The position numbers and the translations under genes are program-made. From positions 1 to 24,626 of the forward strand of contig JAHQWW010000054.1 of assembly GCA_029856365.1 (NCBI GenBank): DNA of 24,626 nucleotides. Reading direction: 5' to 3'. The stretch is from Candidatus Hodarchaeota archaeon (GTDB lineage: Archaea; Asgardarchaeota; Heimdallarchaeia; Hodarchaeales; Hodarchaeaceae). Below, in pieces: positions 4,085-5,958 of the stretch; position 1 is the first letter of the stretch, and the number at the start of each line of letters is the position of its first letter. The notes under the pieces were generated by a model. It searched no databases and was not told the origin of the DNA. It saw only the letters and a program-made list of their open reading frames with translations.

Positions 4085-5395
4085 TTATTCAAGCTCATTA
4101 GCGATGTATTTCTGGTATCCTAATAAGTCAAGTAAGCCATGTCCAGAAAGATTGAAGATAATGGATAGTTCTTCATCCTTGTGTTCTCTTGCGATATCGA
4201 TTACTGCTACAATGGCGTGAGAAGATTCGGGTGCTGGAATAATTCCTTCACTTTTTGTAAATATTTCTGCAGCTTCAAATGCTGTCTGTTGAGTATACTT
4301 ATAGGGGGTGACATGACCTGTATTGATCAACACTGACAAGCTAGGGGCAACACCGTGATATCTTAAACCTCCTGCATGAATAGGTGGTGGTATATAATCA
4401 GAACCTAATGTATACATTTTCAATAAAGGGGTCATATTCGCAGTATCGCCGAAATCATATCGATAATCTCCATCAGACATTTTTGACGCAGCAGTGGATT
4501 CTGCTGCGACCGCTTGCATTTCATATCCATTTCTTAACTTTTCACGGATAAATGGATAAGCTAAACCTGCAAAATTCGAACCTCCTCCCACACACCCCAC
4601 TACAAAATCAGGGAAATCATTTTCTGCCATTCGAAATTGATTAATAGCCTCAAGACCAATAACTGTTTGATGAAGAAGAACATGGTTTAGCACGGAACCT
4701 AAAGAGTACTTTGTCTGTTCGTCTTGAAGAGCTAATGTTATTGCCTCACTGATTGCGATACCTAAGCTGCCAGGATGTCGTGGATCTGAGTTTAGGAGTT
4801 TCTTACCAAACTCTGTTTTCGATGAGGGTGATGGGTAGACTTTTGCCCCATACAACTCCATTATGGTTCTTCTATGGGGTTTTTGATCATAGCTCGCTCT
4901 GACCATCATAACTTGGCAATTCAGATCCAAGAGTTGACTAGAGTAAGCTAAAGCGCTTCCCCATTGACCAGCGCCAGTTTCTGTTGTTAAAGTCTCTGTT
5001 CCTTCCTTTGCGTTGTAGTATGCTTGTGCAATAGCAGTATTCACTTTGTGTGAGCCAGTAGGAGATCTTTCACCTTCATATTTGTAATAAATTCTCACTT
5101 TAGTCTTTAGAAATTCTTCCAGGCTGTTAGCCCTGATTAGAGGTGAGGGTCGAATATCTTGTAACATTTCCCTAATTGCTTCTGGAATTGCTATGTCAGA
5201 TTCCTTAGCAATCTCTTGTTTAATCAGCTCTTTAGCGAATAGTACTTCTAAATCTTTGGGATTCAACGGTTCGTTTGTCGCTGGTGAAAGAGGTGGGGGG
5301 AAGGGTTTGGGTAGATCAGGAAGAATGTTACACCATTTTTTAGGTAATTCATTTTCGTCTAACTCGAACCTTTTACGTTTTCGCATTTTTTTCAC
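4085..5395 (-). CDS. trpB2: Tryptophan synthase beta chain 2 (TrpB2, stand-alone PLP enzyme)
   Basis: SPTGSHKVN (PLP lysine), [68 protein letters not shown] and the N-terminal W.NI.PDLP are TrpB2-type. Start is GTG 5395 or ATG 5386 (preceded by GAGTGA). Confidence 0.97.
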
Positions 5396-5446
5396 TCATT
5401 TCTGTGTTCTTTTTTGACAAGTTATTGACAACCGAAAAAATGAGTG
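5393..5446 (-). promoter_or_regulatory. Putative RBS/start-sequestering hairpin in the trpB2 leader
   Basis: mRNA CACUCAUUU (5446-5438) is the perfect complement of AAAUGAGUG (5401-5393), which contains GAGUG(A) and the GUG start. The 5' arm includes a U6 tract. Confidence 0.6.
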
Positions 5447-5468
5447 GAAATACACTTTATTGAACATA

Positions 5469-5529
5469 TAGAAGCTCTAAAGGTCTTCAAGTATGTGAGG
5501 GTGTCAAAAGATACCTTAATAGAGCCCTA
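5469..5529 (-). promoter_or_regulatory. Putative attenuator hairpin starting at the leader-peptide stop codon
   Basis: mRNA UAGGGCUCUAUUAAGGUAUCUU (5529-5508) pairs imperfectly with AAGACCUUUAGAGCUUCUA (5487-5469). Confidence 0.55.
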
Positions 5530-5643
5530 AAACCAGTGCCACCAGCGCCAGCAGGTTACAAGATAGAATATGATGAGCGCTGATAATTTGATCTTAAAAG
5601 AAGAGAATATGTTAGAATGGCCTTTCTGATTCGTAATTTTCAA
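5527..5643 (-). CDS. Putative Trp-rich leader peptide (TrpL-like), MKITNQKGHSNIFSSFKIKLSALIIFYLVTCWRWWHWF
   Basis: Minus strand ACC TGC TGG CGC TGG TGG CAC TGG TTT TAG (5556-5527). Frame open back to 5760. Candidate starts are TTG 5643, GTG 5682 and GTG 5703; there is no ATG. Stop lies ~130 nt upstream of trpB2 on the same strand. Confidence 0.7.
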   Translation of the reverse strand: MKITNQKGHSNIFSSFKIKLSALIIFYLVTCWRWWHWF

Positions 5644-5772
5644 AAAAACAATAGCAGTTTCAAGAGCTGGGGTTAGATTCACTAGTAGAAGAGGTGAATA
5701 CACGTTCTTCTGTGTTATTGCCAGTCCCGGAACATACCAACCACTAATCTTTTCAAGATGTCAAAAACTTGC

Positions 5773-5792
5773 AGAGCAAATCCTTTTGCTCT
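5773..5792. promoter_or_regulatory. Perfect inverted repeat AGAGCAAA-tcct-TTTGCTCT, candidate operator
   Basis: 8-bp arms with a 4-nt spacer in the trpB2/purH divergent region, just downstream of a minus-strand TATA-like GAAAATAATAAAA (~5808-5796). Confidence 0.4.
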
Positions 5793-5958
5793 ATCTTTTA
5801 TTATTTTCTATCAATGAACTAATTATTTTTTGCGAACAAATTTGATTTCTTGTCAAATAATTTATTTATAAACATAAGAAAGGGATAAAAAGAATCGTAT
5901 GTTCTTAAAAGAACCTTAAAAAGCTTTAATGTTTCATCTAGTTTAGTGGTGCACCCTA

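Follow-up and report, generated by a model that had tools for sequence, protein, structure and literature searches.

Whether an archaeon might tune a tryptophan-forming enzyme to its own tryptophan (Trp) supply, and by what means, is the question raised by the trpB2 locus of a Candidatus Hodarchaeota archaeon (contig JAHQWW010000054.1, of which the whole stretch of 24,626 nucleotides (nt), hereafter the window, was analyzed). The gene encodes a TrpB-like pyridoxal phosphate enzyme (NCBIfam NF009057, E 2.4e-196), and its mRNA carries a leader of ~385 nt that begins near position 5772. An original prediction, made from the letters of the window alone, had described three helices (H1, H2 and H3), which make up only the 3' part of this leader. 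Comparing 17 orthologous leaders (~11 lineages, drawn from genomes of the genus, metagenome contigs and contigs encoding database peptides), we found at the sequence level an upstream open reading frame (uORF) conserved in frame and ending in Trp codons, the helices H1 and H2, a long-range closing helix (P0), and a strict linkage to one trpB2 ortholog. Overall, we think it rather probable that this leader senses Trp supply through ribosomes.

The upstream frame and its link to trpB2

The leader contains one long frame (coordinates of all features in Table 1). UGG accounts for four of its last seven sense codons in the window, and all 17 leaders keep the frame without a stop for 58–70 codons back to an invariant block, GGACUGGC. 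Within this stretch no in-frame stop occurs in 14/14 leaders, vs. 2–8 stops in the other two frames, and three further leaders fit the same pattern. GGACTGGC and the first TGGTGGCA are 174, 183, 201 or 210 nt apart, i.e., always 0 modulo 3, with indels all multiples of three, while the probability of finding the long frame open in shuffled sequences is 0.014–0.06 per leader. At its end, W-W-H or W-W-Q is followed by a stop within 0–8 codons in 17/17 leaders. The original prediction had assumed a translated leader frame, which is borne out insofar as the frame is open in 17/17 leaders and the number of nucleotides between the 5' block and the first Trp-Trp-His motif is divisible by three throughout.

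The encoded peptide is much less constrained. The ratio of non-synonymous to synonymous substitutions (dN/dS) of the long frame is 0.3–1.1 for close pairs, substitutions are spread evenly over codon positions with no third-position excess, and peptide identity between clades is 19–43% (vs. 55–93% for TrpB2). A frame kept open, indels in threes and a drifting peptide therefore argue for a translated regulatory uORF, i.e., one whose translation would be needed but whose product would hardly matter. A canonical in-frame start is available in at least six lineages (in L036, L005, L189 and L209 an ATG, TTG or GTG precedes the block by six codons, in L043 the distance is four codons, and in L187 the start lies further upstream). 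The invariant block itself is unchanged in all leaders and occurs once per genome, at this site only. The terminal pattern is similarly distinctive, since W-x-W-W followed by a stop has 10 matches in a six-frame translation of the 4.24-Mb assembly, with the leader as the only one outside a long open reading frame (ORF).

Among 399 genomes of the phylum, the leader is restricted to the nine genomes with this trpB2 ortholog, and the second trpB2 paralog of the genome (~50% identity) is without such a leader; the leader is thus strictly linked to this one ortholog. One genome bin (G012; contigs C395 and C73, leaders L003 and L028) holds two diverged copies of the whole leader-trpB2 locus, with TrpB2 87–88% identical to that of the window, and in L028 the Trp cluster is closed by an earlier TGA (W-W-H-W-stop). 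For trpB2 itself, the original prediction used a GUG start (GTG 5395); ATG 5386-5384 is more likely, because it aligns with the start in all orthologs. GTGA and GGTG are also enriched upstream of long ORFs in the host genome, which fits GAGTGA as the Shine-Dalgarno sequence of this ATG; the 16S 3' end, wanted to define the anti-Shine-Dalgarno, was not found in the assembly.

Upstream, a box reading TTAAAAG, TATAAAAG or TATAAG lies 27–29 nt 5' of GCAGG in every leader whose sequence extends that far, and the position of this TATA-like box, at a constant distance from where P0 begins, would place the transcription start at ~5772. Just upstream of this predicted leader start and touching it, a 9-bp hairpin followed by a T run (5772-5793, both strands) is terminator-like on both strands by consensus scan, and is not kept in the closest relative (L002).

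Helices of the leader RNA

The most prominent structure predicted for the leader is P0, a helix of ~30 bp (5772-5741 with 5447-5417) that joins the predicted 5' end of the transcript to a pyrimidine-rich strand whose end lies ~30 nt upstream of the trpB2 start. Its duplex energy ranges from −29.6 to −36.6 kcal/mol in 16 leaders (−34.5 in the seventeenth), it closes the independent minimum free energy (MFE) fold in 13/14 leaders, and RNAalifold finds it unguided. Across the alignment, 76.9% of P0 cells are paired (42–47% for slid controls) with 47 double-change cells (20–27 in slid controls), and 0/500 shuffles match the observed value. The sense-strand duplex is more stable than the antisense one in 16/16 leaders, because of G-U pairs in the RNA of the trpB2 strand. 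This covariation points to P0 acting as an RNA helix that closes the whole leader domain. P0 had gone unnoticed in the original prediction, which had placed 5446-5438 in H3 only; this segment belongs to the 3' strand of P0.

Further candidates around P0 were rejected: a bulge-helix-bulge splicing motif (P0 has only 1- and 2-nt bulges), a pairing of the P0 5' strand with a U-rich uORF segment (no better than shuffles, z-scores −2.6 to +1.9), and the UUUGACA of the H2 loop as a mimic of the P0 5' strand (not conserved). A 23-codon ORF (5467-5396, minus strand) starts just past H2, crosses the P0 3' strand and has its TGA inside the trpB2 Shine-Dalgarno sequence; it is probably there by chance, as a 1-nt indel breaks its frame in L002.

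The pairings of H1, H2 and H3 are present on the minus strand where they had been placed, and the MFE fold of 5600-5370 (minus strand) reproduces all three. This region is more stable than its dinucleotide shuffles (−51.4 vs. −42.0 ± 4.1 kcal/mol, n = 200, z −2.28, 3/200 equal or better). Although the leader interior aligns poorly, H1, predicted to pair the Trp codons, has 80.7% of its cells paired (34–59% for slid controls) and three pairs changed on both sides, with the compensatory series CAGCGC/GCGCUG, CAGUGC/GCACUG and CUAAUGC/GCAUUGG; folded alone, it reaches −14.8 kcal/mol (z −1.56). H2, predicted to begin at the leader stop codon, has 64.3% of its cells paired (35–56% for slid controls) with 31 double-change cells, and folds alone at −14.5 kcal/mol (z −2.27); in most lineages it starts at the stop or directly past it.

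Table 1. Features of the trpB2 leader region (positions in the window; minus sign, minus strand).
Feature	Position	Strand	Description
trpB2	4085..5386	−	Start ATG 5386-5384, more likely than GTG 5395; Shine-Dalgarno GAGTGA 5398-5393; NF009057 match; start aligned in all orthologs
H3	5393..5446	−	5446-5438 with 5401-5393; alternative to the distal half of P0; would hide the trpB2 Shine-Dalgarno
P0 3' strand	5417..5447	−	Includes the H3 5' arm (5446-5438), the U6 tract (5440-5435) and both UUGUCAA copies
H2	5469..5529	−	5529-5508 with 5487-5469; 5' arm starts at the leader stop codon
Long open frame	5527..5760	−	77 codons stop to stop, ending C-W-R-W-W-H-W-F-TAG
Trp codons of the long frame	5550-5548, 5544-5542, 5541-5539, 5535-5533	−	
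H1	5539..5586	−	5586-5577 with 5548-5539, covering three Trp codons
Hairpin P1a	5680..5714	−	Begins 6 nt past the mini-ORF Trp codon
Mini-ORF	5715..5735	−	ATG-TTC-CGG-GAC-TGG-CAA-TAA (M-F-R-D-W-Q-stop); 6 codons; overlaps the long frame in the +1 frame
Invariant block GGACUGGC	5720..5727	−	Asp-Trp in the mini-ORF, Gly-Leu-Ala in the long frame
P0 5' strand	5741..5772	−	First ~32 nt of the predicted transcript
TATA-like box TAATAAAAG	5795..5803	−	Predicted archaeal promoter of the leader

How ribosomes could read the leader

It is tempting to speculate on how such a leader would work. With charged tRNA-Trp scarce, a ribosome trailing the polymerase would park on the UGG cluster and melt H1; with Trp plentiful, it would reach the stop codon, open the base of H2 and depart. 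The decision would be made in this first, co-transcriptional round, after which P0 would zip the leader, burying the uORF start region (and so preventing further futile stalling) while leaving the A-rich trpB2 ribosome site open. For the read-out, the foremost candidate, at well under an even chance, is premature termination or polarity vs. read-through in the 140-nt spacer. Slightly behind it comes a competition for the strand 5447-5434 between the 5' end (distal P0 formed, ribosome-binding site (RBS) open) and the trpB2 RBS (H3 formed, RBS hidden), and mRNA stability or something else takes up the remainder. We assume from the role of the enzyme that trpB2 would be on under starvation.

Several observations weigh against this reading. 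The long frame has no canonical start codon in the clade of the window, carries an in-frame stop seven codons before the invariant block in L002, L003, L009 and L010, and is far longer than any classical leader peptide. H2 is not universal, with no strong equivalent in the L036, L187 and L189 lineages. No mutually exclusive terminator/antiterminator pair or conserved alternative partner was found in the leaders, and a consensus scan of 5530-5386, which does not cover archaeal termination signals, found no hairpin-plus-U terminator. In equilibrium folding, masking the Trp codons, the stop or the whole uORF with a ribosome gives no change at the RBS: P0 stays formed and the trpB2 RBS mostly unpaired (predicted unpaired 0.45–0.96 across leaders whenever P0 forms). 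Finally, with only ~11 lineages from one genus-level group to draw on, the statistics for covariation are modest.

The start of the long frame could be supplied in another way, adding to the Trp-sensing uORF rather than replacing it. At the mouth of P0 lies a mini-ORF built as ATG, two codons, GAC-TGG, a further codon and then TAA or TAG; 15/17 leaders share this layout, the exceptions being the near-identical pair L043/L045; in the window, an in-frame GTG also lies upstream of it (5744-5742, minus strand). With Trp present, ribosomes starting at ATG 5735 would stop at TAA 5717-5715. With Trp short, they would wait at UGG 5723-5721 with tRNA-Asp on GAC. They would then slip onto GGA, one base back, with the hairpin 6 nt further on as an aid, and read the 70-codon frame across the folded leader to the second Trp cluster. 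Such a starvation-triggered −1 frameshift seems unlikely overall, if less so than the other alternatives considered below. It would fit a long frame that is open from the invariant block in all leaders yet startless in the clade of the window, with stops seven codons upstream in four leaders, as well as a mini-ORF conserved in its start codon, its Asp-Trp and its stop. The G before GAC is also invariant though the codon ending in that G varies (CGG, TTG, TGG, CAG), and a hairpin lies 4–9 nt after the mini-ORF UGG in 16/16 leaders tested, with differing sequences (z < 0 in all, ≤ −1.8 in 11), next to a −1 frame open for 58–70 codons. For P1/P1a as drawn from the MFE fold of the window, counting pairs in fixed alignment columns gave no support, in an interior that aligns poorly.

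In its slow A-site UGG beside a P-site codon able to re-pair one base back, followed by an open −1 frame and a hairpin at the usual spacing, the site resembles hungry-codon frameshifting, which is established in Escherichia coli under amino-acid starvation (PMC5009743). It differs in having no classical slippery heptamer, as G-GAC-UGG does not read X XXY YYZ. Moreover, re-pairing from GAC to GGA retains only one Watson-Crick and one wobble pair, the influence of a slow A site is greater on +1 than on −1 shifts (PMC5009743), and the slip would be unneeded in the at least six lineages with a canonical in-frame start. In its full form, which we put forward tentatively and at long odds, the leader would be a two-stage ribosomal Trp sensor: a mini-ORF with an invariant Asp-Trp at the mouth of the 30-bp closing helix would let a ribosome slip, the slipped ribosome would unzip the folded leader behind the polymerase, and its parking on the second Trp cluster would switch on trpB2. 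If true, hungry-codon frameshifting would be put to regulatory use in nature, something of which a 2016 review (PMC5009743, section 31) states that no example is known.

The original prediction had proposed a different switch, in which the choice between H2 and H3 folds depends on whether the ribosome sits on the Trp codons or at the stop codon, with H3 hiding the RBS or its U6 tract terminating transcription. We consider this rather improbable. H3 does fold in the window (−14.5 kcal/mol alone, z −2.58), and its covariation score (0.227) exceeds that of slid controls (up to 0.171) and of all 500 shuffles. With the 5' strand of P0 masked, its 3' strand pairs preferentially with the RBS region in L001, L003, L046 and L091, and in a cruder model, with the proximal half of P0 fixed and its distal 5' strand covered, RBS accessibility falls by at least 0.1 in 9/16 leaders and rises by 0.1 in two. 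From such models it is possible, on weak support, that two ribosome sites compete for the one pyrimidine strand (5447-5434); H3 together with the proximal half of P0 would make a pseudoknot, outside what the folding programs used can model. However, H3 takes its 5' arm from the P0 3' strand, and P0 (~−30 kcal/mol) wins in full-length folds. H3 is also weakly conserved, with only 51% of its cells paired (39–49% for slid controls), and pairing of the RBS is no better than that of a shuffled RBS in any leader (z −0.95 to +2.0).

The proposed ribosome-position switch fares no better, since a mask on the Trp codons or on the stop leaves the RBS 0.81 unpaired in the window, with no change in 15/16 leaders, and the stalled ribosome would sit 85 nt from the H3 arm. 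The U6 run is present at 5440-5435, but a role as terminator is not supported: within P0 its strand pairs with GAAAAG, and several lineages (L005, L036, L043, L009) lack it. Likewise, the UUUGACA/UGUCAA complementarity behind a suggested competition between the H2 loop and the UUGUCAA copies exists in the window, but the loop motif is lost even in the closest relative, L002.

Alternatively, the long frame could encode a functional small hydrophobic protein with a Trp-rich tail, the helices merely stabilizing the mRNA and no Trp being sensed. Gene callers did annotate three relatives as hypothetical proteins, and V-x-G-L-A and W-W-H are conserved. The substitution pattern and the low peptide identity between clades described above make this very unlikely, as do the lack of a conserved start, the strict tie of the frame to one trpB2 ortholog, and an N-terminal motif that coincides with an invariant nucleotide block also read in the other frame.

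Scarcely more credible, and if anything a shade less so, is a ligand- or tRNA-binding RNA, i.e., a riboswitch or T-box-like element with P0 as its closing P1 and the UGG blocks contacting tRNA-Trp or Trp. P0 does enclose a large domain as a riboswitch P1 would, and two invariant blocks contain UGG. The leader, however, has no fitting Rfam family at the gathering threshold or at E up to 10 (neither T-box nor Trp leader), its interior helices are poorly conserved, and an RNA sensor would not need an open frame with indels in threes. A tRNA scan of the window was also negative. Weak C/D-box sRNA-like Rfam hits lie antisense to the leader at 5558-5638 (plus strand; SNORD19B, 23.6 bits, E 0.27; sR5, E 0.4); they are probably chance matches, with the C box lost in L002. 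Least plausible of all is that P0 is an inverted repeat at the DNA level (an operator pair, an inverton or a transposon remnant): two ~32-bp arms ~290 bp apart would also fit this, but the arms covary while keeping their pairing, the sense duplex is the stronger one in 16/16 leaders through G-U pairs, and the element, unlike a miniature inverted-repeat transposon, is single-copy per genome and fixed before one gene.

Known systems and the biology of Hodarchaeales

The closest known parallel to the Trp-sensing uORF is the bacterial trpL-type attenuator (RF00513, Trp_leader), with which the leader shares an upstream translated frame, Trp codons clustered near its stop and placed in an RNA helix, a hairpin starting at the stop codon, and a Trp-forming gene behind. 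The differences are that the host here is an archaeon, that the frame has 58–90 codons (vs. 14–30 in the trpL type), and that the whole leader is closed by a 30-bp 5'-3' helix, with no 3:4 terminator, mutually exclusive helices, intrinsic terminator or Rfam match. As terminator/antiterminator pair, intrinsic terminator and Rfam model are all missing, the leader is therefore not a member of the trpL-type family, although it would work like one. From the T-box (RF00230) it is set apart by the absence of an Rfam match and by UGG blocks that sit in a conserved reading frame.

Other systems resemble single aspects of the leader. As in the translational attenuation of ermC and secM-secA, a ribosome arrested near the uORF end is expected to remodel the downstream RNA, but the trpB2 RBS lies ~130 nt from the stall site, is predicted open, and is outside the hairpin next to the stalled ribosome; it is 0.81 unpaired in all modeled single-ribosome states, and its only partner (5446-5438) is 85 nt past the stop. 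As in translational riboswitches, one segment of the closing helix (its 3' strand, 5447-5434) has two possible partners, the 5' strand in P0 and the RBS in H3. Here, however, a ligand pocket is not apparent, conservation on the H3 side is weak, and what the helix encloses is a reading frame, so that the effector would be a ribosome. As in tnaC, where Trp-dependent ribosome arrest controls Rho termination, a ribosome parked where the leader frame ends could shield the nascent RNA from a termination factor or lay it open to one; the archaeal route for this would be FttA/aCPSF1, as named in PMC13681488. However, tnaC senses free Trp via its nascent peptide and turns catabolism on, whereas the signal here would be a lack of Trp-tRNA at UGG, and the leader has no sequence similarity to tnaC.

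Short leaders of other kinds were also encountered upstream of trpB2. In a genome from another family of the class (G031; L011:1183-1511), a canonical leader of 27 codons begins with ATG and shares its F-W-W-H-W-F-stop tail with the window; downstream of it, a second ORF of 61 codons overlaps the trpB2 start by 29 nt (leader fold z −3.95). By eye, CCUCCUAAA could pair there with UUUAGGAGG just past the stop, hiding GGAGG, although the MFE fold is without that pairing; this is a different, simpler architecture. A metagenome contig (L069) and a Spirochaetes metagenome-assembled genome (L140), from unrelated lineages, have short leaders ending D-W-W-W-W-T-x-x-P-stop, 190–240 nt upstream of trpB2. 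As for neighboring genes, the leader-trpB2 unit is divergent beside a RuBisCO large-subunit gene in three metagenome contigs (L189, L190, L209), while the neighbor in the window is purH.

The setting of trpB2 in the genus gives the leader a possible role. Five genomes of the genus (G000, G001, G007, G009 and G019, one of them a single-contig assembly) gave no match to IGPS (PF00218), the sole match to TrpA (PF00290) in the same five, in G009, was below the family cut-off, and each retains one or two trpB2 genes. Judging from these profile searches, the genus seems to be without TrpA and TrpC, and trpB2 is therefore probably a stand-alone, indole-salvaging Trp synthase; the organisms of these five genomes are likely Trp auxotrophs that salvage indole.

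Ribosome-mediated sensing of amino acids by leader peptides is a textbook bacterial mechanism, and we found no description of archaeal leader-peptide attenuation or ribosome-mediated amino-acid sensing in the literature searched. With the trpB2 leader such sensing would extend to Hodarchaeales, which among Asgard lineages are the nearest to eukaryotes, and would take an unusual form that combines a long translated frame with a helix closing the 5' end of the transcript onto the pre-gene region and possibly with a frame switch. For studies of transcription-translation coupling and of control by uORFs in Asgard archaea, the leader provides a concrete system open to mutation, and it suggests that organisms seemingly without TrpA and TrpC tune indole salvage to Trp supply.

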